DNA of 64,000 nt from an uncultured Chloroflexia bacterium (GTDB taxonomy: Bacteria; Chloroflexota; Limnocylindria; Limnocylindrales; CSP1-4), in the NCBI GenBank assembly GCA_963798955.1, contig CAWCVO010000002.1, positions 157,599 to 221,598 of the forward strand. Direction: 5' to 3'. A program made the translations under genes and the position numbers. The notes under the pieces are model-generated. The model was given only the letters and a program-made list of their open reading frames with translations. It was not told the origin of the DNA and did not search any database. Every line of letters starts with the position of its first letter. Position 1 is the first letter of the stretch. Shown one piece after another: positions 1,376 to 30,375 of the stretch.

Positions 1376-2376
1376 CTAGCGTTCGAAGCGGCGCTGCAGC
1401 AGGGCGTGGATGGAGATCGAGATCAGGATGATCGCGCCGTAGATGAACTGTGACCAGTAGCTGGTCAGGCCTGCGGCAACGATCCCGGCTCCAATGGCGC
1501 CGATCATGAATGCACCGATGAACGTGCCGTAGATGCTGCCGCGTCCGCCGAAGACGGATGTCCCGCCGACGAAAACGGCGGCCAGGCCGGGCAGGAAGAA
1601 CCCATCACCCAGGTTGCCCGGATAGAAGTTGACGACGCGCAGGGCGTTGAGCATGCCGGCGAAGGCCGCGGCCATACCGACAAGTACGAACAGCAGGATG
1701 CGCGTAAAACGGATCGGGATGCCCATCAACTGCGCCGCCTGGCGGTTGTCGCCGATGACGTATGCATTCTGTCCGACGCGGTGCCGGTTGAGGAGGATCC
1801 AGCTCACGATCGTGACCAGGATCAGCCAGTAGAACTCGCTGGGGATCCCGAAGATCTTGCCCGCCAAAAGGTTGTAGATATCTGAATCGCGCGTCGCCAC
1901 GAGCGCGGTCGTCTTGCCGTTCACGAGCGCCAGGGTCAGGCCGCGGTAGAGGAACTGGGTGCCGATCGTGACCACCAGTGCAGGCAACCCGATGAGCGTC
2001 ACGACCAGGCCGTTGAAGAGTCCCGCGAGTGCCCCCGTTCCCAGCGCGGCCACAACCCCCAGCTCGACGCTGCCCGTCGCGTTCCAGGCCCACAGGAAAC
2101 CGACCATGCCGAGCGCCATGATCGAAGGGAAGGAGAGGTCGATATCGCCGGCGATGATCAGCAACGTCAGAAGCATCGCCACGATTGCGAAGTAGGGCGT
2201 CGTCTGGGCGAACGAGAGGTATATCGCGCTGGACAGGAAGGTTCGCGGAGCGGCCACGATGAACACCGCCCAGAGCAGCAGGAAGGCGACGGTGATGCCG
2301 ATCTGCGATGCTGACGACGCCGCAACGGCGAGCGCGCCCGTACGGCGGCCAGAGTCGCGGGCGGCTGCTGCCGTGG

Positions 2377-2380
<4 letters not shown>
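1376..2380 (-). CDS. sugar ABC transporter permease (RbsC/AraH-like)
   Basis: 334-aa polytopic membrane protein typical of ribose/arabinose-family ABC permeases. Its start overlaps the stop of the ATPase gene (2377-2380). Confidence 0.85.
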
Positions 2381-3264
<884 letters not shown>

Positions 3265-3326
3265 GAGTTGCGGTCGGCGACCCGGAGGTCGCCGACCGCG
3301 ATCACCTTGACCTTCAGTCGCGCTGG

Positions 3327-4544
3327 CTAGCGAATCTGCTGCTCGACCAGCGGAGCGATCACATCGACGTTGTTCTTGTCGACGAAGCCACCACCGGTAT
3401 TGATGAACAGGCCACTGAAGCCGTAGGTGTGAGTCAGGCAGAGCTGTTCGACGGCCTCGAAGCCCTGCAGGTACTGCTGCTGGTCGATGACCAGGCTGAC
3501 GTACCCGTCCTTGATGCCCTGGATCGTCGCGGGCGAGAGGTCGAAGCCTGCCGCGTAGACGCTACCGGGATCCATGTTGGCCGCCTGCATGTAGGTCGGG
3601 ATGGTGGATGTCAGGTTGCCGTGGTCGATGAAGATCGCCTTCAGGTCGGGATTGGCCGAGGCCATGCCGGTGAAGGTCGGAACGCCCGCCGACGGGTCGG
3701 CGTTTGTCGCGTCGTCGATCTCGAGATAGACCACGTTCATCCCCGCCGCGGTAAGCGCGTCGGTGATGCCCTTGGTGCGCTCACCACGACCGGGCTGCGC
3801 TGCGAGGCCCCACACGAACACCTTGTCGCCCGCCTGCAGGTTGCCGCGCTTGATCGCCTCGTTGGCCAGCGCCGCGCCGGCGTCGTGCAGGACGGCACCC
3901 ACGTAGCCCATGCCCGCACTGGCGTACTTGGCTTCCGCAGTGGGCAGCTCGGTGTTCATGACCGTGACCAGGATGCCCTGGCTTTCGGCCTGATCGATAA
4001 GCGGATCGAAAGCATCGTCACCGGGGTGACCCATGACCGCGATGCCATCAGGATGGGTGGCCATGGCCTCCTGGAACTGGCTGATCATCTTGGCCGGATC
4101 CCAGTCGGACCACTGGTAGGTCACGGTTGGGCCGAAGGCCGCCTCGGCCGCCTTGGCACCGTTGTAGACGACCGTCTCGAAGCCACCGCCCTGGGTTCCA
4201 CCGGGGAAGAACACGATGTTCATGCCCGAGCAGAAATTGGCACCCTGTGGGCTGCTACCGGCTGAAGAGGACGTCTCCACCGCGCTTGGCACGGTGGTCG
4301 GCGCGTTCTCGGTCGGGGTGGCCTGCGTCGTGGCGTTTGCGGTTGGATTGGCCGCCGTCGGCGACGGCGTTGGTGAGGTCGACGAGCATGCACCGAGTGG
4401 CAGCACGATCGCCACCAGGAGCGCCAGCGGCGCCCATCGCGAGCGCGCCCGGGTGCTCCCAAAGGATCCCATGGTCATGACAACGACTCCTTTGCCCTTG
4501 CGGGCGACGCGCGTCCAATTGCCGGGCGCGTTCGGCCCGATCAT
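3327..4544 (-). CDS. sugar ABC transporter substrate-binding lipoprotein
   Basis: Signal peptide with lipobox (LPLGACSS), a Thr/Pro/Ser-rich linker, then a periplasmic-binding-protein fold. The true start is probably an internal ATG (MTMGSFG…). Confidence 0.8.
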   Translation of the reverse strand: MIGPNAPGNWTRVARKGKGVVVMTMGSFGSTRARSRWAPLALLVAIVLPLGACSSTSPTPSPTAANPTANATTQATPTENAPTTVPSAVETSSSAGSSPQGANFCSGMNIVFFPGGTQGGGFETVVYNGAKAAEAAFGPTVTYQWSDWDPAKMISQFQEAMATHPDGIAVMGHPGDDAFDPLIDQAESQGILVTVMNTELPTAEAKYASAGMGYVGAVLHDAGAALANEAIKRGNLQAGDKVFVWGLAAQPGRGERTKGITDALTAAGMNVVYLEIDDATNADPSAGVPTFTGMASANPDLKAIFIDHGNLTSTIPTYMQAANMDPGSVYAAGFDLSPATIQGIKDGYVSLVIDQQQYLQGFEAVEQLCLTHTYGFSGLFINTGGGFVDKNNVDVIAPLVEQQIR

Positions 4545-4689
4545 GCCCGTGACGGGTTTACCGCCGTCTCCTCCTCCTGGCAGCGGAACACTGCCGAGAG
4601 TCTATGCAAACGAGTGTATGCACACGATTGCTGCAGTGTCAAGGCGTATACTCGGGCGGTCTCGCACGCCCACCTGACGAGGACCAAAG

Positions 4690-5400
4690 ATGCAGCTCGC
4701 CAATCTTCGCCAAGAGGTGCTCGCGGCGAACCAGAGGCTGGTCAGCGCCGGCCTCGTGACGCTGTCGTGGGGCAACGCCAGCGGAGTTGATCGCGCGGCG
4801 GGCGTGATGGTCATCAAGCCGAGCGGCGTGCCGTACGATCAGCTCACGCCCGACAACCTGGTGGTCGTGGCCCTCGCTGACGGCGCCGTGCTGGACGGTT
4901 CCCTGCGCCCTTCGTCGGACACGCCAACGCATCTCGTTCTCTATCGCCGGCTGCCTGCGATCGGCGGCGTCGTGCACACGCATTCGACGGTCGCCGCCGC
5001 ATGGGCACAGGCTCGCCGGCCGATTCCCTGCCTGGGGACGACCCATGCCGACCATTTCCACGGCGCCGTGCCGGTCACCCGGATGCTGACGGAAGAGGAG
5101 ATCGGTGGTGAATACGAGGCAGCGACCGGCGAGGTGATCGTCGAGGTTTTGGCGAAGCTTGGTCATGACCCACTCGCCATGCCGGCGACACTCGTCGCTG
5201 CGCACGGCCCATTCACGTGGGGGCGTTCGGCCAGCGACGCGGTGGACAACGCCATCGCCCTCGAGACGATTGCGGCGATGGCCTACCACACGCTGGCATT
5301 GGAGACGGGCGCTGAGGAGATCACCGACGCGCTGCGGCGGCGACACTTCGAACGCAAACACGGACCACACGCCTACTACGGCCAACCCAAGGTCGGGTGA
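4690..5400 (+). CDS. araD: L-ribulose-5-phosphate 4-epimerase (class II aldolase/adducin family)
   Basis: GNASGVDRAAGVMVIKPSGVPYDQL… HTHSTVAAAW… typical AraD motifs; 236 aa. Confidence 0.9.
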   Translation: MQLANLRQEVLAANQRLVSAGLVTLSWGNASGVDRAAGVMVIKPSGVPYDQLTPDNLVVVALADGAVLDGSLRPSSDTPTHLVLYRRLPAIGGVVHTHSTVAAAWAQARRPIPCLGTTHADHFHGAVPVTRMLTEEEIGGEYEAATGEVIVEVLAKLGHDPLAMPATLVAAHGPFTWGRSASDAVDNAIALETIAAMAYHTLALETGAEEITDALRRRHFERKHGPHAYYGQPKVG

Positions 5401-6368
5401 AGACCGCCAGGCTCCACGCGCCGGGCGATATCCGGCTGCACGACGAACCGGATCCCACACCGACAGACGGCGAAGAACTGGTGCGCGTGACCGCAGTCGG
5501 CCTGTGCGGTTCGGACCGGCACTGGTTCATCGAAGGGAGCATCGGCGACGCCGTGCTGGCCCGCCCCCTGGTGCTCGGTCACGAAGTCGCCGGAGTTATC
5601 GAGAACGGGCCCCGCAGGGGCATACGGGTGGCAATCGACCCCGCCGATCCATGCGGCCGGTGCATGCTGTGTGCGACGGGTCGCGAGCACCTGTGCCGCG
5701 AGCTGCGCTTTGCCGGTCACGGCGACATTGACGGCGGCCTGCGCACGCTCGCCGCCTGGCCCGGGCGGCTGCTGGCACCGCTACCGGACAACATCTCCGA
5801 CGACGAGGGAGCGCTGCTCGAGCCACTCGGCGTAGCCCTCCATGCGCTCGAACTGGGCATGGTCGAGCCGGGCATGAGCGCCGGCGTCATCGGCTGCGGA
5901 CCAATCGGCCTGATGCTGGTCCAACTCTTGCGCCGTGCGGGCGTGCAGCCCGTCCTGGCAAGCGACCCCCTGAGGCACCGCCTCGCGGCCGCGCAAGATT
6001 TCGGCGCCAGGTTGCCGGCACGCTCGGAGCAGGTCGACGTCGCGTTCGAGGCGGCTGGCGACGACGGCGCGGTCGACGATGCAATCGCCGTCGTGCGGCC
6101 AGATGGGCGCGTCGTCCTGGTCGGCATTCCCGACTCGGATCAGACCGCCTTCCGCGCCTCGATCGCGCGGCGCAAGGGCCTGACCCTGGCGCTCACCCGG
6201 CGCATGCGTGCCCATCATCTTCGGCTCGCGATCGCCGCCGTGACCGCCGGCGGGATGGATCTGCGCTCGCTGGTCACGGCCCACTACCCCTTGGCCGGAG
6301 TCGCCGATGCATTCGCCGATCTCGTCGAGCGCCGCGGTCTGAAGACGATCGTTCGGCCCAACAGCTGA
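5397..6368 (+). CDS. Zn-dependent alcohol/polyol dehydrogenase (MDR family)
   Basis: GLCGSDRHW…GHEVAG zinc-ADH signature and a Rossmann GCGPIGL motif. ATGA overlap with the araD stop. It may act on arabinitol or xylitol. Confidence 0.8.
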   Translation: MKTARLHAPGDIRLHDEPDPTPTDGEELVRVTAVGLCGSDRHWFIEGSIGDAVLARPLVLGHEVAGVIENGPRRGIRVAIDPADPCGRCMLCATGREHLCRELRFAGHGDIDGGLRTLAAWPGRLLAPLPDNISDDEGALLEPLGVALHALELGMVEPGMSAGVIGCGPIGLMLVQLLRRAGVQPVLASDPLRHRLAAAQDFGARLPARSEQVDVAFEAAGDDGAVDDAIAVVRPDGRVVLVGIPDSDQTAFRASIARRKGLTLALTRRMRAHHLRLAIAAVTAGGMDLRSLVTAHYPLAGVADAFADLVERRGLKTIVRPNS

Positions 6369-6486
6369 GCCTGTGGGGCGCCTGGCGACCCACTCACCAG
6401 TAGTGCAAACGGTTGCGGGCAATCGTTGTAGGTGCTAGCCTCGCCCTCGTGCGCGGGCGATTCGTCCTGAGCCAAGGGAGACCGTC

Positions 6487-7992
6487 ATGAAGCCGTTCGC
6501 GGACCTCGAAGCGTGGCTTGTCACCGGCAGCCAGGAGATGTACGGGGATACCGTCCTCGAGCAAGTCCGCCAACACGCGGGCCTGGTCGCCGAGGGGCTC
6601 GACGCTGCTGCTGCGATGCCGGTACGGATCGTCAGCAAGCCCGTGGTCAAGTCGCCCGAGAGCATCAGAGCGGTGTGCCTCGAGGCCAGTGCCAGTGACG
6701 CGTGCGTCGCCGTGATCGCGTGGATGCACACCTTCTCGCCGGCACGCATGTGGATCGCCGGGCTCCAGGCGCTCGACAAGCCTCTGCTCCATCTACATAC
6801 GCAGTTCAATCGCGACCTGCCGTGGTCGGCCATCGACATGGACTTCATGAACCTGAACCAGTCGGCGCACGGAGATCGCGAGTTTGCCCATCTGGCCACA
6901 CGCCTGGGTCGCGCGCGAAAGACAGTTGCCGGCCACTGGCAAGACCCGCAGGTGGTCGCGCACATCAGCACCTGGGCGCGCGCTGCCACCGCCTGGCACG
7001 AGGCGCAGCAACTTCGTGTGGCGCGCTTTGGCGACAACATGCGCCAGGTCGCGGTGACCGAAGGTGACAAGGTTGCCGCCCAAATCGCGCTAGGTGTAGC
7101 GGTCAACGGCTATGGCGTCAGCGAGCTGGCCGCGGCCGTGGAGTCCGTTCCGGAACGCGCTGTCGACGACCTGGCGCATACGTACGACCGTGACTACTCG
7201 GTCGTGCCGGTGCTCGGCCCGAACGGCGCGCGACGCGAAGAGCTCCGGATGGCGGCACGAATCGAGGCCGGCTTGCGCAAGTTGATCGGCGATGGCGGTT
7301 TTGGTGCCTTCACGGACACCTTCGAGGACCTGGACGGCCTGGCCCAGCTGCCCGGCATAGGCGTCCAGCGACTGATGGCCGACGGCGTGGGATTCGGTGC
7401 CGAAGGCGACTGGAAGACGGCAGTGATGGTCCGTCTCGTGAAGGTCATGGCGCGCGGACTGCCGGGCGGCACCAGCTTCATGGAGGACTACACCTATCAC
7501 CTCGATCCGGTGGCGCCCAAGATCCTGGGGGCACACATGCTCGAGGTATGCCCGACCATCGCGGCTGAACGGCCCTCGTGCGAGATCCACCCCCTGTCGA
7601 TCGGCGGCAAGTCGGATCCCGTGCGACTCGTTTTCACGGCCGCGCCCGGACCTGCAATCGTCGCTTCACTCGTGGATTTGGGCGACAGGCTGCGCATCGT
7701 GGCCAACGAGGTCGAGGTCGTAGCGCCCGACGAACCACTGCCGCGTCTGCCCGTTGCGCGGGCGGTATGGCAACCACGACCCGATCTGACGACCGCCGCG
7801 ACGGCCTGGCTGATGGCCGGCGGCTCGCATCACACAGTGCTCACCCAGGCGCTTGGAAGCGAGGCATTGGCGGACTTTGCCGAAATGGCGGGCATCGAGT
7901 TCCTGCTGATCGACTCGACGACGACACTCCACTCGTTCGCGAATGAAGTCCGCTGGAACGAGGCCTATTACCGCCTGGCACACCTGCGCTAG
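6487..7992 (+). CDS. araA: L-arabinose isomerase
   Basis: 501 aa, with N-terminal [21 protein letters not shown]… and [15 protein letters not shown] motifs typical of AraA. AGGGAG ribosome-binding site upstream. Confidence 0.9.
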
Positions 7993-9143
7993 GCGGCGGC
8001 CGAACTGGGCAGCAGCCCGGCACCGTTCACGGCCTCGACAACCAGGCAGCTGCCCTGGCGGCCCGTGCGTGGAGGGTAATCGGACGCGACGGCCTGGCGC
8101 AGCGACTCAACCGCGTCGTACCGCACAAGGTTGACGGTGCACCCGCCGAAGCCGGCGCCGGTCATTCGCGCTCCGACGACGCCCGGCACGGAGGTCGCGA
8201 TGTCGACCAGTGCATCGAGCTCGGCCGAACTTACGTCGTAGAGATCGCGCAGCGAGGCGTGCGACTCGGCAAACAGCCGGCCCAATGCGTCGAGATCCTC
8301 GGTTTCGAGCGCAGCCACGGCGCGAAGTACCCGTTCGTTCTCCTCGACGACGTGGCGGCACCGCCGTAGCGTCTGCTCGTCGAGCAGGTCGGATGCCGCG
8401 CCGAGCATCTCGACGGTCACGTCGCGCAACGAGGAGATGCCCCGATAGCGCGTTGCCAGCAGCCGCACGCCGCGCTCGCAGTCCTCGCGGCGCGCGTTGT
8501 ACTCGGATGTGGCAAGTCGGCGCGGCGCGTTGGTGTCAAGGACGACGATGGCGATGCTGCTTGGCAAGGCGACGGACCGATGCTCCAGGGAGCGGCAGTC
8601 CAGGAGTACCGCGGCACCAGCCTGGCCGTGAACCGCCGCGAATTGGTCCATCAGCCCGCAGGCCACCCCAACGTACTCGTTCTCGGCACGCTGAGCCAGG
8701 CGGGCGAGGTCCATGGGTGCCAACGGTGGCGGGACGGCAGAGCTGAGCGTCCATGCAGCGGCGAGCTCGAGTGCCGCGGAGGACGACAGACCCGAGCCGG
8801 TGGGGATGGTCGAGTCGACCACCGCCGCCACGGCGCGCGATGGCACGCCCGCGCGCGCCAGCCCCAGACCGACGCCGGCGACATAGTCGGTCCAGTCGCC
8901 CCGTCGAGGCCCGGGATCGCCGGCGTCGAACTCGCCGCGCGTCGCCTCCTGCAGCGACGACAGGATGACCCGGCTGTCGGTCGCCGGCCAAGAAGCAATC
9001 CAGGTTTCGAGGCTGATCGCGACCGGCAGCACCCAGCCCAGGTTGTAGTCGGTGTGCTCGCCGATCAGGTTGACCCGGCCGGGCGCGCGCACCAGGCGCA
9101 CCTGTTCCGGGGCGCCCTGCCGCGGCAGGCGCCAAGTCCGCAA
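7989..9143 (-). CDS. galK: galactokinase (GHMP kinase)
   Basis: [13 protein letters not shown] galactokinase signature and [17 protein letters not shown] motif. Confidence 0.85.
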
Positions 9144-10360: not shown

Positions 10361-11779
10361 TTATTTGCCCGGTTCCCGGCGGTGGGCGAGGTATTCGAGC
10401 AGATCGAGCTTGGTGACGATGCCAACCGGGCGGTCGGCGTGGACCGCGACCAGCGCCGCGGCGCCGGTCGCCAGCAGGTCGAACGCGTCGTCGATCGAGG
10501 CGCCGGCGGGAATGGTCGGCAGGGAGCGGTCCATCACCTCGCCCGCGGTTCGCTCGACAGTCTCCGGCTTCAGGTACACCCGCTCGAGCAGGCCCTTCTC
10601 GCTGATCGAGCCCACGATGCCCTCGATGTTCTCGTCATCGCGCTCGGTCACCGGCATCTGGCTGATGCCGTAAAGCTGCAGCAGGTCGATCGCCGCGCCC
10701 ACCCGGTCGGTCGTCCGCGCCAGCACGAGCGGTGGCAGCTCGGCCGGCTGATGGCCGTTACGTAGTACGTCGGCCACCGTAACGCGCGGTACCGGCGAGC
10801 CGAGCAGTCCGTGCTGGCGCAGCCATTCGTCGTTGTAGAGCTTGGACAGGTAGTTGCGGCCGCCGTCCGGGAACAGCACGACGATGACCTTGCCCGGCGC
10901 CTGGCCGGCTTCGATCAGTTCTCGCGCGACGGTGAGCGTGGCCACCAGCGCCGTGCCGCTCGACTCCCCGGCGAGGATGCCTTCTTCGCGCGTGATGCGC
11001 CGCGCGGCCGCGAACGAGTCGCGGTCGGACACGCGCACCCAGCGATCGACGACCGACGGATCGTAGGTGCCGGGCAGGAAGTCCTCGCCGATGCCCTCGG
11101 TCAGGTACGGCCGCGCCGTGTCGCCCGACAGGACCGAGCCCTCGGGGTCCGCTCCGACCATCACGATGCCCGGATTTTGTGCCTTGAGGTAGTGCCCGAC
11201 GCCGGTGATCGTGCCACCCGTGCCGGACGCGATCACCACCTGCGTCACGGCACCGTCCGTCTGGCGCCAGATCTCGGGGCCGGTGGTGTTCTCGTGCGCC
11301 AGCGGATTGTTCATGTTCCAGTACTGGTCGGGCTGGAAGGCACCCGGGATGTCGCGCGCCAGGCGCTTGGCAACCGAGTAGTACGACTCGGGCGATTCGG
11401 GCGCCACGTTCGTCGGGCAGAGCACCACGTCGGCACCATAGGCGCGCAGCAGTGCCTGTTTCTCGGGCGATTGCTTGTCGGCCATCACGAACACGCAGCG
11501 GTAACCCTTGAGGGCGGCCGCGATGGCCAGTCCATGTCCGGTATTTCCCGACGTGGGTTCGATGATCGTGCCACCCGGCTTGAGCAGCCCGTCGCGCTCG
11601 GCGGCCTCGATCATGGGCAGGCCGATGCGGTCCTTGACCGAGCCTCCCGGACTGAGCATTTCAAGCTTGGCCAGGATTAGCGGCTGCTGCTCGGAAGGAC
11701 CCAGTTCACGGGTGACGTGCGTAAGGCGCACGAGCGGCGTGTTGCCGATCAGCGCGAGGATGTTCTCGGCGTACTCCAA
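10361..11779 (-). CDS. cystathionine beta-synthase (PLP fold type II plus tandem CBS domains)
   Basis: PGGSVKDRIG PLP-lysine motif and TSGNTGHGLA, with a C-terminal CBS pair. Confidence 0.85.
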   Translation of the reverse strand: MEYAENILALIGNTPLVRLTHVTRELGPSEQQPLILAKLEMLSPGGSVKDRIGLPMIEAAERDGLLKPGGTIIEPTSGNTGHGLAIAAALKGYRCVFVMADKQSPEKQALLRAYGADVVLCPTNVAPESPESYYSVAKRLARDIPGAFQPDQYWNMNNPLAHENTTGPEIWRQTDGAVTQVVIASGTGGTITGVGHYLKAQNPGIVMVGADPEGSVLSGDTARPYLTEGIGEDFLPGTYDPSVVDRWVRVSDRDSFAAARRITREEGILAGESSGTALVATLTVARELIEAGQAPGKVIVVLFPDGGRNYLSKLYNDEWLRQHGLLGSPVPRVTVADVLRNGHQPAELPPLVLARTTDRVGAAIDLLQLYGISQMPVTERDDENIEGIVGSISEKGLLERVYLKPETVERTAGEVMDRSLPTIPAGASIDDAFDLLATGAAALVAVHADRPVGIVTKLDLLEYLAHRREPGK

Positions 11780-12051
11780 TGCCGGCCGAGTATAGGTTGC
11801 GCCTTAGCCAAGCTCGCGCGGGACCACGCTCGCGTCAACGACGACGCTGGACATCCAGACGATCCCATCGACTGTGCGTGGTCGCGGATTGCCCGAACGA
11901 TGCCTTCGGCGGTGTGGGCGGCCGATACGGCTGGGCGCGAACAGGCGCTATCGACGAACGATGGCAACTGTCTTCGTTCTGGAGGCAACGGTCGCGCCCC
12001 GTCGTCGAGCGCTATGCTCCCGTTCACTACCCACAGGAGGGGCGGCGGCCA

Positions 12052-13283
12052 GTGGCGACGACGTTACCTAAGGCTTCTACACGTGCTTCCTCGCGTGCCG
12101 CCCAACTTCAGTCGGAGCTGCGTCAACGCAAAGCGGAACTGGCGATCCTCGAGGAGGTCGGCCAGGCGCTCGGGCGGCATCTGGACCTCGACGCCATCGC
12201 TGAGTTGGTGGGCGAGCGGCTACACCAGACATTCCCGGATGTCGGTCTGTTTGTCGCCCTGTACGACGGCGCCACGAACATGATCAGCTTCCCGTACGAG
12301 ATAAAGGCCAGCGATGGTCAGCGTTACCACTCGGATCCGTTTGCGGCGGAAGCGGGGCTGACCGCGAAGGTGATCAAGTCGCGTCAGCCGCTACTGATCA
12401 GGTCGGCTGGCGAAGCCGAAAACGCAGGCGCGCTGACGTTCGGCGACAAGACCGAGTCCTGGCTGGGGGTCCCGCTGCTTGTCGACGAGGATGTGATTGG
12501 CGCCCTGGCCCTCGAGAGCGGCAGGCCGGGCGAGTTCGACAAGGACGATCTGCGCGTGGTCTCGGCGCTTGGCTCCACTACGGCGGTTGCCCTGCGAAGT
12601 GCGCGCCTGTTCGACGAGACCAAGCGGCTGCTGGCCGAGACCGAGCAGCGCAATGCCGAACTCGCGGTCGTCAACGAAATAGGCGCGGCGCTCGCAAAGC
12701 AGCTCGATTTCCAGGGCGTCATCGATGCCGTCGGCGACAAGGTCGGCGAAGTCTTCGGCTCGCGCGACCTCACCATAGCCATTCTCGACGAGGCGACCAG
12801 CACGGTCACCTTTCCGTACTGGTACGAGTTCGGTGTCCGCAACCGCGACGTGCCTCCGATGGCGCTCGGCGTGGGACTCACCTCGCGAATCATTTCAGAA
12901 GGACGGCCGCTGCGGTTGGGCACGGCTGCCGAGGCAGAGGCATTGGGCGCGGTCTACGTTGGCGACCGCAGCGAGTCGTACCTTGGCGTTCCCATCCGGG
13001 CCGGCCACAGGGTCATCGGCGCGCTGGCTGTATCGCGACACGAGCCCAATTCGTACGACGAGGCCGACGAGCAGCTGGTGATGACGATCGCCTCGAGCAT
13101 GGGCGTCGCCCTCGAGAACGCGCGGCTGTTCGACGAGACCAAACGGCTGCTGGCCGAGACCGAGCAGCGCAACGCCGAGCTGGCGGTCATCAACGAGATC
13201 GGCGAGGCGCTCGCCAGGCAGCTCGACTTCCAGGCAATCATCGACGCCGTCGGCGACAGGATCCGCTCGATCTTCAATGTCGT
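12052..13283 (+). CDS. N-terminal GAF-repeat segment of the giant hybrid sensor kinase, separated from the main ORF by frameshifts (possible pseudogene or sequencing artefact)
   Basis: GTG at 12052 preceded by GGAGG. The translation carries the same approximately 175-aa GAF units and [27 protein letters not shown] linkers as the downstream 1980-aa ORF. The frame is lost near 13283. Confidence 0.5.
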
Positions 13284-13625
13284 GACGGGAGCTGATCTCG
13301 CTGTACGACTCGGCGACGAACACGCTCCGCACGCCGTATCGGCATCGATCAGGGCGTCCGCCAGGAGCATCGAGGAGCAGCCCCTCGGTGGGATTGATGG
13401 CGATCGTGATCAAGGAGCGCCGGGCACTTCGCCTGGGCACCAGCGCAGAGGCAGATGCGCTGGGCGCGCTCGTCTTCGGAGCTGACGATTACGAGTCATG
13501 GCTGGGCGTGCCGATCCTTGCCGGTGACCGCGTTCTCGGTGCCGTCTCTCTCGAGCGTGCCCCGAAGAACGCGTTCAGCGAGTCGGACGAGCGTCTGCTG
13601 GCGACCATCGCCGCGAACCTCGGGC

Positions 13626-19393
<5,768 letters not shown>

Positions 19394-19397
<4 letters not shown>

Positions 19398-19750
19398 GCG
19401 AAGCTCCGATCCTCGATCAGGGAGTCCTCGACGAGCTGCGCGATTCGATCGGCGGCGACGAGTCGTTCATCGCCGACCTCGCCGCCACCTACCTCGCGGA
19501 AGGGCCTGGTCACCTCGAGGCGATGCAGGCGGCGGCAGCGGCAGGCGATGCAGCCGCGATCGTCCGCCCCGCGCACACGCTCAAATCGAGCAGTGCCGCG
19601 CTCGGGGCCATGCGCCTGTCGGAACTGGCCCGCGAGATCGAGTTCGCCGGTCGCAACGGCGAGGTTGCGGACCTTGCGTCTCGGGTGGCCACGGCGAGCT
19701 CGACCTGGGCGGCGACGGTCGAGGAGATGAAACGGGCAGGACTGGCGTGA
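19394..19750 (+). CDS. histidine phosphotransfer (Hpt) domain protein
   Basis: [13 protein letters not shown] is the HxxKG Hpt signature. A TTG start overlaps the kinase stop (cTTGA), and its own stop overlaps the next start (GTGA). Confidence 0.75.
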
Positions 19751-20856
19751 GCGAACCGGTTGCGCTGATCGTCGACGACAGCGCCGTCAACCGGATGCTG
19801 CTCGCCCGCCACTTGATGTCGCTCGGAATCTCTTCGCGCGAGGCAGTCGATGGACGCGCCGCTCTCGATCTCCTGCGCGAGGGCAAGAGTGGCGTGGCAG
19901 TCGTGCTGCTGGACGTCGAGATGCCCGAGATGGACGGCTACGAAACGCTCGCGACGATCAAGTCCGACGAGTCCCTCCGTCATGTGCCGGTGATCATGGT
20001 CTCCGGCGTGGACGAGCTCGATAGCGTGGCGCGCTGCATCGAGCTGGGCGCCGCTGATTTCCTGACCAAGCCGTTCAACCCGGTCATCCTGGGCGCTCGC
20101 GTACGAGCCTCACTGGCAGACAAGCGGATGCGCGACCTCGAGACCGAGCATGCCGCTCGCCAGGCCGAACTGCTCGACACCATCGAGCGCCAGAAAGAGG
20201 AGTTGAGCCGTTTCCTGTCGCCACAGGTGGCGGCGCTGGTGTCGACCGCCGAAGGCCAGCAGCTACTGGCCGGCCATCGGCGCGAGGCGACCGCCGTCTT
20301 CTGCGACCTACGCGGCTTCACGGCGTTCAGCGACTCGGCCGAACCCGAAGAGGTGCTCGGCCTGTTGCGCGAGTACCACGCCATGATGGGCGCGCTCATC
20401 GTCGAGCACGGCGGCACGCTCGAACATTTCGCGGGCGACGGAATGATGGTCTTCTTCAACGATCCGGTGCCGCAGGCCGATCATGTCGAACGTGCCGTGC
20501 GCATGGCGGTGGCCATGCGCGAACGCTTTGGTGAGCTGGCCGCGCGGTGGGCCAAGCTGGGGTTCGAGCTGGGCCTGGGCATCGGCATTGCGACCGGCTA
20601 CGCGACTCTGGGCCGCATCGGTTTCGAGGGCCGCTACGACTACGGCATGGTGGGCGCGGCGGTGATCACCGCTTCGCGCCTCAGCTCGGCGGCCGAAGCA
20701 GGACAGATCCTGCTCAACCCGCGCGCCCACGCGGCAGTCGAGGCGCTGATCGACGGCGAGGACGTCGGCGCGCTGCAGCTCAAGGGCTTCGCTCGCCCGA
20801 TCCCGACCATTAACGTGCTCGGCCTGGTGTCGCAGGGCGAGTCAGTTCCCGCCTGA
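19747..20856 (+). CDS. response regulator with class III adenylate/guanylate cyclase output domain (REC-CYCc)
   Basis: REC motifs (IVDDS…LLDVEMPEMDG…K) followed by a cyclase catalytic domain (AVFCDLRGFTAFSD… FAGDGMMVFFN… GIGIATGYATLGRIG). Confidence 0.85.
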   Translation: MSEPVALIVDDSAVNRMLLARHLMSLGISSREAVDGRAALDLLREGKSGVAVVLLDVEMPEMDGYETLATIKSDESLRHVPVIMVSGVDELDSVARCIELGAADFLTKPFNPVILGARVRASLADKRMRDLETEHAARQAELLDTIERQKEELSRFLSPQVAALVSTAEGQQLLAGHRREATAVFCDLRGFTAFSDSAEPEEVLGLLREYHAMMGALIVEHGGTLEHFAGDGMMVFFNDPVPQADHVERAVRMAVAMRERFGELAARWAKLGFELGLGIGIATGYATLGRIGFEGRYDYGMVGAAVITASRLSSAAEAGQILLNPRAHAAVEALIDGEDVGALQLKGFARPIPTINVLGLVSQGESVPA

Positions 20857-20888
20857 CCTGCGCGCCATCCGTCCTGACCGCGAGCGGC

Positions 20889-21788
20889 CTAGTCGGACGG
20901 CTCGAGCGACGCCTCCGAGTTCGGCGGCGGTTGCTCCTGGAACGGCGCACGGTACTCATAGCCCGGGCGCCCCGGTCGGTGGTTGTAGACGAGCCATCCG
21001 ACACCTACCAGGACGAGGCCGAGGCCGATCCATTGCGCGGTGGGCAGGCCGCCGACGGTCCAGTTCCAGCCGGCCCTGAAGAACTCGAGCAGGCCGCGCA
21101 CGGTGCCGTACCAGATCGCCCAGAACGCGGCCAGGTCGCCGGGGATGAGCCGTGGCAGGAAGCGCCAGGAGATGTACAGCGCAATCAATCCACCGGTGAT
21201 GTCGAGCGCGGATTCGTAGAAGAACAGCGGCTGGAAGCCGGTCGTCGCGGCAGGGTAGAGCGAGCACGGCCACTCGGCCACGCGATGCGCGCAGTCGATC
21301 TGGATGCCCCACGGCAAATTCGTCGGCGGCCCGTACAGCTCCTGGTTGAAGTAGTTGCCCCAGCGGGCAATGCCCTGTGCGAAGAGGGCTCCGGGCACGA
21401 CCACATCGAGGGCGAGGCGCAGCGGCAGGTGCTTCCAGCGCGTGTAGATCACGATGCCGAGGGCGGCGCCAGCCACGCCGCCATACAGGCCCAGGCCCGA
21501 GTAGGGCGGCAGGAAGATGCGCGCCAGGTTCTGGCTGTAGCACGGCTCTCCCAGACCGCAGGCGCCCCACTGGTCGATGACGTGGTACATCCGCCCACCG
21601 ATGAGGGCCAGCGCGCCGACCAGCAGCAGCGCATTCCAGATGTGATTCGGGTCGTAACCGCGGCGGCGGGCCTCGCGCTGCGCGATCAGCAGCAGGACGC
21701 CGACGCCGATTACGTAGCCAACGCCGTACCAGCCGATGTTGACTGGCCCGATCTGGAAGAGGATCGGATTTGACGGGCTGGGGATCAC
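20889..21788 (-). CDS. lgt: prolipoprotein diacylglyceryl transferase
   Basis: IGPVNIGWYGVGYVIG… typical Lgt N-terminus and topology; 299 aa. Confidence 0.9.
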   Translation of the reverse strand: MIPSPSNPILFQIGPVNIGWYGVGYVIGVGVLLLIAQREARRRGYDPNHIWNALLLVGALALIGGRMYHVIDQWGACGLGEPCYSQNLARIFLPPYSGLGLYGGVAGAALGIVIYTRWKHLPLRLALDVVVPGALFAQGIARWGNYFNQELYGPPTNLPWGIQIDCAHRVAEWPCSLYPAATTGFQPLFFYESALDITGGLIALYISWRFLPRLIPGDLAAFWAIWYGTVRGLLEFFRAGWNWTVGGLPTAQWIGLGLVLVGVGWLVYNHRPGRPGYEYRAPFQEQPPPNSEASLEPSD

Positions 21789-23719: not shown

Positions 23720-24643
23720 GTGGAACACTCCGGCACCGTCGCTCGGGCCGGCTACGCAGCCGCCGTTGCCACCACGACAGCCCGTCCGGGCGGGGCCGGG
23801 TTCGAGCTTTACGTCCCCGTCCGTTACCGGGACTACCGGGCAGGCGGCTATGGCATCGTCGTCAGCTGGCCCGTGAACGGCGGCGTGGCATCGGTGTCGG
23901 CGTCTCTGGAGCAGGTCGACCTTGGCGTCCTGTCGGCGCTGTACGAAGTGGCTATGCCAGATGGCCCGGCGTCAGTGACGATCAAGCTCGTGCAATTCGG
24001 CTCGGCGACCCCGCAGGACGATCTGACCATCGGTACATGGAAGACCGAAATTGCGTTCGACCAGGCCGCGCCGTTGATCGACTACACCGCCGCCCCAGCC
24101 ATCGATGCCTTCGAACTGCCTCGTCTGGTGAGGGCGGGCTACCACCTTGAGGCCAAGCTGACCGGCGAGAGTGGGCTGGTTACTCTCGGATTTACGGTCA
24201 ACGCCGGCCGAGTAGATGTCCTGAATCCGGGCGAGATCTATGAGATGCGCATGACCGGCGAGGGCTACGACATCGGCGGCCGGATGATCCAGCTCGACTT
24301 TGGGCATGTGCGCGGATCTCAAACCTGGCCGGCCGACCTGCCACGGCAGACACAACTCGAGCTGGACCTGGTCGACACAGCAACGACGGACCTCGCCGCG
24401 CCTGAGGTTGTCGCCACATGGCCGGTCCATGTGCTGGCCGCCAGGCACGTACCCCTTTCGGGCATCGTCATCCTCGACGAGACGGTCGCACCCCATCCGG
24501 GGATTTCCGAGCTCGTCGCGGGCGGCTACCACCTGATGGTGACCGAAACAATCGATGCGAACGGGATCCGATTGACGTGCGATGTCTACGCCAGTTCGAC
24601 CAGCCGAAGCACCAATCCGATCACGACGCAGCCTATTCGTTGA
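23720..24643 (+). CDS. hypothetical protein
   Basis: 307-aa ORF with non-repetitive composition. A possible upstream signal-anchor lies in another frame (23595-23876). Confidence 0.5.
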   Translation: MEHSGTVARAGYAAAVATTTARPGGAGFELYVPVRYRDYRAGGYGIVVSWPVNGGVASVSASLEQVDLGVLSALYEVAMPDGPASVTIKLVQFGSATPQDDLTIGTWKTEIAFDQAAPLIDYTAAPAIDAFELPRLVRAGYHLEAKLTGESGLVTLGFTVNAGRVDVLNPGEIYEMRMTGEGYDIGGRMIQLDFGHVRGSQTWPADLPRQTQLELDLVDTATTDLAAPEVVATWPVHVLAARHVPLSGIVILDETVAPHPGISELVAGGYHLMVTETIDANGIRLTCDVYASSTSRSTNPITTQPIR

Positions 24644-28647: not shown

Positions 28648-28751
28648 TTTGCGCGCCGCTTGTGACAGCTAGCGTGTCACAACGCTCGCTGGACCTACCC
28701 CGCTTTCGTGGACACCTACCATCGCGGCACCGTCCGCGGGAAGGAGTCCAC

Positions 28752-29045
28752 ATGGGGAGGAGGCACACCCACTACAGCACTGAGTTCCGGGCCGAGGCGG
28801 TGAGGCTGGCCGAGACATCGGGTCAGTCGGTCCGTCAGGTCGCGCTTGATCTGGGGATCGCCAACCAGACCCTCGGGCAGTGGCTCCGTCAGGCCCACGA
28901 GCGGCCGCCGGGAGCGCCGCTCGCGGCCGACGAGCGGGCCGAGCTCGTCGAGCTGCGGCGCCGGGTGAAGGTCCTCGAGACCGAGCGCGAGATCCTGCGA
29001 AAAGCAGCCGCCTTCTTCGCTCAGGAGACCGAGCGGACCCGGTGA
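28752..29045 (+). CDS. IS3-family transposase OrfA (HTH)
   Basis: MGRRHTHYSTEFRAEAV… IS3/IS911-type OrfA with a leucine-zipper end. Confidence 0.85.
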   Translation: MGRRHTHYSTEFRAEAVRLAETSGQSVRQVALDLGIANQTLGQWLRQAHERPPGAPLAADERAELVELRRRVKVLETEREILRKAAAFFAQETERTR

Positions 29046-29926
29046 CCCGGTTCCGCTTCGTCGAGCAGGAGAAGGCGAGCTATCCGGTGCGCATCCTCTG
29101 CCGCGCCCTCGGTGTCTCCCCGAGCGGCTACTACGCCTGGCGATCACGCGCTCCCTGCGCCCGAGAATGCGCGGATGCGGAACTGGCCGCGCAGATCCGC
29201 CGCGCGCATGCCCGGAGCCGCGGGACGTACGGCGTGCCGCGCATCCACGCCGACCTCGCCGATGCCGGCTTCCACGTCTCGCGCAAGCGGGTCGCGCGGC
29301 TGATGCGGCGTGACCATCTCGCGGGCGTCCATCGCCGCCGGTTCGTGCGCACGACGATCCGCGCCGAGCACGCGGCGCCGTTCCCCGATCTCGTCAAGCG
29401 CGACTTCAGCGCCGCGGGGCCCGACCGGCTGTGGGTCGCCGACATCACGGCGCTCCCGACACGCGCCGGAGCCTGCTACCTGGCCTCGATCGTCGACGCC
29501 TGGAGCCGCCGGGTCGTCGGCTGGTCGATGGCGGGACACATGCGCACCGAGCTCGTCAGCGCGGCGCTCGACGCGGCGATCGTCCGCCGCCGACCGGGCA
29601 CCGATCTCATCCATCACTCCGACCACGGCACGCAGTACACGAGCCTCGCGTTCGGACGGCGCCTGCGCGAGTCGGGGATCGCGGCGTCGATGGGCTCGAT
29701 CGGCGACTGCTACGACAACGCGCTGGCCGAGAGCTTCTTCGCCACCTTGGAGACAGAGCTGATCGACCGCTCCGACTGGGCGACCAGGGCGGAGGCCAAG
29801 GCCGCCGTCTTCGACTACATCGAGGTCTTCTACAACCGGATCCGCCGCCACAACAGCCTCGGCAAGCTCAGTCCCGAGCAGTTCGAGGAGCGCTATCGTT
29901 CAAGGCCGGTCATCGCGGCCGGATGA
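28880..29926 (+). CDS. IS3-family transposase OrfB (DDE integrase core), expressed as OrfAB by -1 frameshift
   Basis: rve-type DDE domain (…DITALPT… HSDHGTQYTS… CYDNALAESF). The -1 frame relative to orfA and a candidate slippery site GAAAAG near 29000 are consistent with programmed frameshifting. Confidence 0.85.
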   Translation: MAPSGPRAAAGSAARGRRAGRARRAAAPGEGPRDRARDPAKSSRLLRSGDRADPVTRFRFVEQEKASYPVRILCRALGVSPSGYYAWRSRAPCARECADAELAAQIRRAHARSRGTYGVPRIHADLADAGFHVSRKRVARLMRRDHLAGVHRRRFVRTTIRAEHAAPFPDLVKRDFSAAGPDRLWVADITALPTRAGACYLASIVDAWSRRVVGWSMAGHMRTELVSAALDAAIVRRRPGTDLIHHSDHGTQYTSLAFGRRLRESGIAASMGSIGDCYDNALAESFFATLETELIDRSDWATRAEAKAAVFDYIEVFYNRIRRHNSLGKLSPEQFEERYRSRPVIAAG

Positions 29927-30144
29927 GGCATCACGTCCACGAAACCGGGGCAACTCCACCCAGGCGGCCGACTGGAAGTCGACCAAACTTCGAGACCACC
30001 TACGCACGACGTGCGTCTTAGGTTCGCCGTTTCAGGCGCGGCCGGCCGTCTGCATGCGGGCGTGGGCGTAGAGAGCGCTCAAACGTGCGCCAGTTACGCA
30101 TCTCGGGCGTAAACGGTCGCAGCAGAGTGCCTACCACGCGGCTG

Positions 30145-30310
30145 GTGCGTAAATGGCGCGTGAATCGGGGTGACGCTCGCATTGCACGCGGCCGTGCGTA
30201 GGTGGCGCGTGAATCGGGGTGACGCTCGCATTGCACGCGGGCCGTGCGTAGGTGGCGCGTGAATTGGGGTGACGCTCGCATTGCACGCGGGCCGTGCGTA
30301 GGTGGCGCGT
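30145..30310. repeat. direct tandem repeat of a 50-bp unit (about 3.3 copies plus degenerate flanking copies)
   Basis: Unit GTGCGTAGGTGGCGCGTGAATCGGGGTGACGCTCGCATTGCACGCGGGCC at 30145, 30194 and 30244, with a partial copy at 30294. Each unit contains an imperfect inverted repeat (CGCGTGAAT…ATTGCACGCG). Confidence 0.85.
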
Positions 30311-30375
30311 GAATCGGCGTCAGGCGCGCGTACCACGGGTGACGCGCGCAGCGGGCACCAAGCGCGGGGCTGGCC

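Follow-up and report, generated by a model that had tools for sequence, protein, structure and literature searches.

Clustered frame changes in the GAF repeat array of a giant hybrid histidine kinase gene probably reflect consensus errors in a metagenome assembly

Introduction

When the reading frame of a giant sensor kinase gene hops repeatedly within a few hundred nucleotides, has the gene been inactivated, is the region genuinely variable, or is the assembled sequence at fault? This question is raised by a 64-kb stretch of DNA (hereafter the window; G+C ~68%), in which a hybrid sensor histidine kinase gene is interrupted inside its array of GAF repeats. An original prediction, made from the letters of the sequence, described four frame changes here and attributed them either to a recently inactivated sensor or to indel errors in near-identical tandem repeats. 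We placed the frame changes by alignment, compared the window with its closest relatives and weighed the competing explanations.

Materials & Methods

The window was compared with two ENA assemblies in a three-way MAFFT alignment. These were L010 (ERZ25039495 contig_94960), which shares 96.0% identity with the window over 24 kb, and L011 (ERZ25039533 contig_51236), which is 99.3% identical over 21 kb; the contig names of both are Flye-style. Frame shifts were placed by frameshift-aware dynamic-programming alignment; the query was the intact allele of the close relative L010. GAF sequence was followed through the array by three-frame translation and tblastn with the sister repeats, and protein domains were assigned using Pfam. 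All coordinates are positions in the window unless stated otherwise.

Results

The features of the locus are listed in Table 1. The kinase gene starts with the GTG at 12052, with AGGAGG ~13 nt 5′ of it, and the deposited sequence divides the gene into two ORFs. GAF hits above the Pfam thresholds, together with a catalytic core and receivers, identify the product as a multi-GAF hybrid sensor histidine kinase: after its GAF domains, ORF2 encodes HisKA (78.1 bits), then HATPase_c (90.3 bits) and then two receiver domains (Response_reg, 153.7 bits in two stretches). Its relatives usually encode such a protein in a single continuous ORF; the deposited kinase does not, and is represented by public calls of 477 aa (P0019, the upstream half) and 1,980 aa (P0245, the downstream half). 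The first of these ends in an out-of-frame tail of ~65 aa and the second begins with an out-of-frame head of ~56 aa, which bears out the earlier warning that ORF boundaries are unreliable here. The contig on which P0019 sits is 1.13 Mb long, and the call is present in both NCBI and ENA.

Table 1. Features of the kinase locus and of the interrupted GAF repeat, with coordinates in the window.
Feature	Coordinates	Strand	Remarks
Hybrid sensor histidine kinase, whole gene	12052..19397	+	start GTG 12052, stop 19395–19397
ORF1, upstream half of kinase	11779/12052..13485	+	frame 1; Pfam: 2 GAF domains
ORF2, downstream half of kinase	13455..19397	+	frame 0; Pfam: 8 GAF domains
GAF repeat 2, interrupted unit	13117..13637	+	521 nt; 516 nt in intact L010 allele
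Divergent island, GAF 2 core	13282..13650	+	differences among the three assemblies within the kinase gene confined to this stretch
Shift 1, frame 1 to 2	13288..13291	+	window gacGGGAGctg, relatives gacAGGGctg
Shift 2, frame 2 to 0	13340..13343	+	window gtatCGGCatc, both relatives gtatTCGatc
Shift 3, frame 0 to 1	13371..13371	+	window gcatCgagg, extra C; both relatives gcatGTGgag
Shift 4, frame 1 to 2	13389..13397	+	one surplus base in ggtGGGATTGAtgg; both relatives 1 nt shorter
Shift 5, frame 2 to 0	13621..13625	+	window ctCGGGCgtc; L010 ctcGGG-gtc; L011 ct-GGGCgtg
Out-of-frame tail of called ORF1 (P0019)	13292..13485	+	no real protein sequence
Out-of-frame head of called ORF2 (P0245)	13455..13622	+	no real protein sequence
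Hpt phosphotransfer gene, downstream of kinase	19295..19750	+	coordinates of the longest ORF
Receiver domain fused to adenylate/guanylate cyclase	19747..20856	+	Pfam domains

Removal of five bases from the kinase gene produces a 2,446-aa ORF with no stops, encoding 11 GAF domains, HisKA, HATPase_c and two receiver domains. The gene is most likely one intact hybrid kinase of ~2,446 aa with 11 GAF domains. Downstream, the true start of the Hpt gene probably lies near 19394, given a 118-aa homologue in L010. On domain content, the receiver-cyclase is probably the output of a phosphorelay that would run from the kinase through Hpt to the receiver-cyclase.

A conserved linker, ...ENARLFDET..., connects successive GAF units at a spacing of 498–528 nt. 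Its copies at 12598 and 13117 read in frame 1 and the one at 13638, like every later copy, in frame 0; the distance from the linker at 13117 to that at 13638 is not divisible by 3. Three-frame translation and tblastn with the sister repeats showed that the GAF sequence exits frame 1 after ...IRSIFNVV, goes on in frame 2 (...LISLYDSATNTLRTPY) and ends in frame 0 from GVALENARL. A GC3 frame plot drawn over the entire window proved too noisy for strand calls and revealed no more than a muddled coding signal in 13321–13636. The frame hopping that had been predicted is thus present in the sequence, as seen in the linker frames, the 521-nt unit and the frameshift-aware alignment, and the frame-1 N-terminal part and the frame-0 body do belong to one repeat family, with GAF domains in both ORFs and a common linker. 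The proposal that near-identical 525-bp tandem repeats were the cause fared less well, as the units are only 57–73% identical to one another at the DNA level, and the core of repeat 2 reaches no more than 63% identity with its nearest sisters. Tandem Repeats Finder reported nothing in the 11–20 kb region, with a maximum period (500) below the unit length (519–528 nt) that makes this result uninformative.

Aligned with the intact allele, the kinase gene switches frame five times, each time by +1, at ~13291, 13340, 13371, 13390 and 13622, all in the core of repeat 2. The alignment kept all five shifts with penalties of up to 20 BLOSUM units for each. Those at 13291 and 13622, the outermost, were needed with any sister repeat as the query; the inner three rest on the L010 allele and are partly supported by the sisters R4, R5 and R9, which as queries also find the excursion into frame 0. 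The L010 product (P0122) crosses repeat 2 in one frame and matches successive window segments in frames 1, 2, 0, 1 and 2. At shift 5, the inserted base is the third codon base of the alternative allele. Among the repaired junctions of the gene is ...FNVVTGLISLYD... The sequence contexts of the five sites contain no homopolymer or short-repeat tract. Under uniform decay, the chance of five shifts falling inside one 335-nt span of this 7.3-kb gene is P ~2e-5.

Once repaired, repeat 2 scores 62.6 bits across the full Pfam GAF_2 model, compared with 49.7–65.2 bits for its intact sisters. Pfam is blind to the number of shifts repaired: five-shift and two-shift repairs both score 62.6 bits, because the inner shifts fall in a variable loop.

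These placements alter the original prediction in several details. It counted four shifts, where alignment to the intact allele gives five. Its changes from frame 1 to 2 at ~13390 and from frame 2 to 0 at ~13622 were recovered, but the step that it described from frame 2 to 1 at ~13330 is really a change from 2 to 0 at 13340 followed by one from 0 to 1 at 13371. The TGA at 13283–13285, which it assigned to frame 1, is actually in frame 2; the first stop to close frame 1 is the TGA at 13483–13485. The sister sequence given for 13622 was also mistaken: the sisters read ATGGGCGTCGC, and the orthologous alleles read CTCGGGGTCGC and CTGGGCGTGGC.

Only three assemblies, the window included, carry the kinase gene at an identity of at least 90%, and the 90%-identity clusters of both kinase halves have three members each (the window and the two ENA assemblies). 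A full-length protein query found no fourth near-identical assembly; a 231-aa repeat 2 protein query found no close allele among the matches listed, all of them at most 405 aa long; and a 30-mer from the sequence flanking the patch on its 5′ side had no exact match in JGI metagenome contigs. The relatives found in a one-genome-per-species scan all show at most 65% identity and come from MAGs of Chloroflexota / ‘Candidatus Limnocylindrales’, several of which are Microflora Danica (MFD) MAGs. Relatives in this kinase family are normally single ORFs of 2,100–3,300 aa. Orthologous genes are multiply frameshifted in the MFD MAGs L001, L002 and L009 and lie in a single frame in L003, L004, L008 and the SPAdes MAG L006.

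The original prediction had proposed a comparison with orthologues. L010 proved to be in frame through repeat 2; in L011 the patch is interrupted as well, by indels other than those of the window (+G, −A and −T, affecting the L011 product P0121). In the three-way alignment, the indels private to the window are all insertions, five in number. Those at 13343, 13371, 13397 and 13621 are missing from L010 and L011 alike, so that four of the five window-private insertion columns of the 21.3-kb alignment fall in a 369-nt patch (P ~4e-7). The first shift is ambiguous: within 13282–13301, L011 has, like the window, a net +1 relative to L010. Beyond the patch, the window carries an extra C at 9115, at the 5′ end of galK, and probably lacks a G at 23764, where it was compared with L010 only; repairing either site yields a longer, sensible ORF.

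Two ORF overlaps elsewhere in the window (35070/35495 and 37436/37935) were also considered as candidate frameshifts and rejected, as Pfam assigns the ORFs to distinct genes (DUF346 and TMEM175; HycI and NiFe hydrogenase).

The other two assemblies have private indels of their own. L011 has 19 private insertion columns and three deletions (22 columns), with the same bias towards insertion as the window; 17 of its private events lie at window coordinates 18131–21165, where the C-terminus of the kinase, Hpt and the cyclase are shattered. L010 has ~10 private indel events, and its PALP-CBS gene, kinase (at window 16206) and receiver-cyclase are split. So many frameshifts in housekeeping genes are not credible between genomes this close; the assemblies therefore contain consensus errors.

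Outside the divergent island, the three assemblies show 0–3 differences per 300 nt across the kinase gene (~12.0–20.3 kb), and the remaining 5.7 kb downstream contains no indel and almost no substitution compared with the relatives. The genes flanking the kinase in L010 are 2–17% different, and the window shows zero differences from L011 over ~6 kb of flank (2,100–8,000). The kinase block was evidently exchanged recently between the two lineages.

Inside the island, the window differs from L011 by 34 substitutions and six gap columns and from L010 by 36 substitutions and five gap columns, and L011 differs from L010 by 21 substitutions and three gap columns. A pairwise alignment of L011 with L010 gives 19 substitutions, of which 15 are synonymous third-position changes (P=6e-5), and a divergence of 4.9%, equal to the genome-wide level between both lineages. 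By these measures, the L011/L010 differences are real allelic divergence. The window-private substitutions relative to L010 look like noise: they are distributed 7/4/8 over the codon positions and concentrated in 13282–13413 alongside the insertions. The island of the window is a mosaic, its 5′ half grouping with L011 and its 3′ half with L010. Its GGGC at 13622–13625 is the union of GGG in L010 and GGC in L011, and ATCCTCGCTG in L011 is the union of ATCCTC-CTG in L010 and ATC-TCGCTG in the window. Three codons of the island show three residues each (T/A/V, G/R/Q and V/A/M).

Discussion

We consider it probable that the frame changes are errors of consensus building or polishing, made where two haplotypes piled up in a metagenome assembly of the Nanopore type. 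Two co-existing lineages, 96% identical elsewhere, would be nearly identical over the kinase block, where reads from both might stack on one contig. The island would then be the only place where the alleles of the two lineages disagree, by ~5%, and a polisher that met two haplotypes there could produce a chimeric sequence carrying extra bases. Errors would cluster in this way because the kinase block is near-identical between the lineages save for the island. The window assembly was probably generated from long reads (Nanopore, with Flye and one round of Medaka, as for the MFD MAGs), which would fit the Flye-style contig names of L010 and L011 and the MFD MAGs among the relatives; we infer this platform, the coverage and the mixed-haplotype mechanism. 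Four of the insertions are private to the window, and private indels recur outside the patch in the window, in L011 and in L010. Several observations pull against an artefact. The inserted bases are outside long homopolymers, which are the classical context of Nanopore errors. The first shift could be a real change shared by the window and L011, as both have a net +1 in 13282–13301. The patch is broken in two assemblies out of three, as would also be expected of a real lineage-specific lesion. Finally, L005, an Illumina-based relative, has a frame change in its GAF array too, and true frameshifts are thus possible in this family.

Of the two causes put forward originally, indel error is supported by the intact L010 allele, the private indels and the undecayed repaired domain. 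The other, by which real frameshifts have inactivated the kinase or split it into a 2-GAF fragment and an 8-GAF kinase, leaving repeat 2 as a decaying remnant, we judge unlikely. The interruptions do stand in the deposited sequence, L011, the closest relative, has interruptions in this patch too and the same net +1, and the window-private substitutions in 13282–13413 are spread evenly over codon positions, as under relaxed selection. Once the first shift had truncated the protein, however, further lesions would have had no reason to cluster, yet all five are confined to 335 nt, and the 5.7 kb left downstream is free of indels and almost free of substitutions compared with the relatives. The island differences from L011, set against none in the ~6 kb flank, have accumulated too fast for neutral decay, and the repaired domain scores as its intact sisters do. 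Relatives do not carry the same lesions, four of the five insertions being missing from both, and private indels are plain to see in housekeeping genes of the same assemblies.

Mis-assembly or collapse of near-identical tandem repeats might be suspected, as the lesions sit in a tandem array of 10–11 units of ~520 nt and the orthologous arrays of other long-read MAGs are fragmented too. It is nevertheless very unlikely: collapse needs an identity above ~95%, far from that between repeat 2 and any sister; the number, order and length of units are colinear with L010 and L011; the repeat length is correct within 5 nt; and the largest error cluster in L011 (18.1–21.2 kb) is outside the repeats. It is hardly credible that the patch is a hypervariable cassette, resembling a diversity-generating retroelement target or arising from gene conversion or phase variation, whose indels are real population variation. 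The island does differ in all three assemblies, with three residues at each of three codons, and variants are shared among assemblies in a mosaic pattern. The 64-kb window, though, holds no copy of the patch above 82% identity and so no template repeat; the best non-self match there is a sister repeat (67–82% identity), and the donor is not another repeat of the kinase gene. The changes involve all bases and are not adenine-specific, the shift sites have no homopolymer or short-repeat tract, and the predominance of synonymous changes (15/19) between L011 and L010 speaks for purifying selection and against diversification. Programmed ribosomal frameshifting or transcriptional slippage would fit the common +1 direction of the five shifts, and its likelihood is still close to nil: no slippery motif is evident in the sequence contexts of the five sites, and the closest relatives do not share the sites, L010 repeat 2 being in a single frame. 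We know of no precedent for five consecutive recoding events in 335 nt.

If the frame changes are consensus errors, the frame hopping suggests no new biology, and its value is mainly practical. The 477-aa and 1,980-aa calls belong together as the two halves of a single 2,446-aa kinase, each contributing ~55–65 out-of-frame residues to public protein databases. A cluster of 1-nt insertions in the same direction, confined to a short strain-divergent island of an otherwise identical, recently recombined gene, may serve as a signature of mixed-haplotype polishing, and recognising it could prevent loci in long-read MAGs from being counted as pseudogenes or split genes. There is an outside chance that the ligand-binding core of GAF 2 is a truly hypervariable sensor cassette, of which at least three alleles persist while the rest of the kinase has been homogenised between lineages of 96% overall identity. 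If so, real frameshifts in some strains might turn the N-terminal GAFs off, and an intracellular sensor would then vary by allelic cassettes at the level of a single domain or undergo phase-like inactivation.

Among known systems, the variable regions of diversity-generating retroelements likewise form a short patch that varies between otherwise identical genomes. The island differs from them in lacking a template repeat in 64 kb and adenine specificity, in its mostly synonymous differences and in its position, as the target here is an internal GAF core and not a C-terminal lectin-type fold. In bacterial frameshift pseudogenes, as here, neighbouring ORFs in different frames are parts of one protein; unlike those, the window has clustered lesions that are mostly absent from a 99.3% identical relative, an undecayed domain and a pristine 5.7 kb downstream. 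The gene itself belongs with the giant multi-GAF hybrid histidine kinases known from Chloroflexota / ‘Candidatus Limnocylindrales’ and other soil bacteria, which have the same domain order and ...ENARLFDET... linkers. One of these (P0249; 2,453 aa, 64% identity, 99% coverage) is close in length to the repaired 2,446 aa, and another is P0248 (2,837 aa); these relatives are single ORFs, whereas the copy in the window has five 1-nt insertions in GAF 2. Residual indel errors are known to split genes into adjacent ORFs in Nanopore-only assemblies (Sereika et al. 2022, PMC9262707; MFD MAG pipeline, PMC12313526). The window insertions resemble such errors in being private single-base changes that break conserved genes, differ between assemblies of the same organism and can be fixed with the help of a relative. 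They depart from them in lying outside long homopolymers, in being clustered and insertion-biased and in coinciding with a strain-variable island, a combination that points to mixed-haplotype polishing rather than to homopolymer miscalling.

Near-identity of the kinase gene between lineages

Outside the repeat 2 island (the core of its second GAF repeat), the hybrid sensor histidine kinase gene at about 12000-20300 differs by ≤0.5% between lineages, and this identity extends to synonymous sites, whereas the flanking genes are 2-17% different between the same lineages (at 5-8 kb, for example, about 15-18%). This pattern indicates that the 8-kb block has recently recombined or swept between lineages sharing 96% ANI.

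The longest-ORF start of the kinase is ATG 11779, which adds about 91 Arg-rich residues (window 11779-12051) in an extension that overlaps the divergently oriented PALP-CBS gene. The true start is more likely GTG 12052, which is supported both by the gene call in public databases and by an AGGAGG motif.

Frame changes in orthologues and indels elsewhere

In orthologous multi-GAF kinase genes, the reading frame between linker motifs switches 3, 7 and about 10 times in the Microflora Danica (MFD) long-read MAGs L001, L002 and L009, in most cases by +1; the orthologues of L003, L004, L006 and L008 keep a single frame throughout, and that of L005 has one change (see table).

Frame changes in kinase orthologues and the galactokinase indel
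Feature	Position	Setting	Basis
Extra C	window 9112-9117	galactokinase gene on minus strand, near 5′ end	comparison with L010 and L011
Frame-switching multi-GAF kinase orthologues	about 9-18 kb in each of L001, L002 and L009		frame between linker motifs
Single +1 change in multi-GAF kinase orthologue	L005 13124-13623	MEGAHIT (k141-named) MAG	

The window has one C too many in the galactokinase gene, reading GCGCCCTG against GCG-CCTG in the related contigs L010 and L011 alike. Without it, the ORF regains its N-terminus and spans 399 codons stop-to-stop; galactokinase is called at 394 aa in relatives, with a 4-nt overlap with galT. The extra base is probably a further consensus indel.

Contig L011, the 99.3% identical relative, carries 17 private indel events, insertions nearly throughout, in the 3 kb corresponding to window 18131-21165. 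This non-repetitive DNA encodes the kinase C-terminus, Hpt and receiver-cyclase, and gives these assemblies a second example of densely clustered errors with a bias towards insertions.

At 23764, the window has one G fewer than the L010 lineage (CAGCCGCC-GTTGCC). Inserting a G lengthens the ORF (307 aa in the window versus 349 aa for the L010 homologue), and its N-terminus turns from Arg-rich to hydrophobic and membrane-like; from this ORF quality we infer, in a two-way comparison of the window with the L010 lineage, that the G is missing from the window rather than added in L010.

Insertion element and neighbouring repeats

At 30195-30372, the window exceeds the L010 lineage by two segments of 49 and 67 nt. 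They hold repeats of GTGCGTAGGTGGCGCGTGAATCGG-like units and lie in seemingly intergenic DNA that adjoins an insertion element. That element is a 1,272-bp stretch (28690-29961) missing from the L010 lineage, and it seems to have been inserted recently as a mobile element. Its transposase-like ORF has two parts, a helix-turn-helix part followed in a different frame by an integrase-like part, and resembles IS3-family elements.
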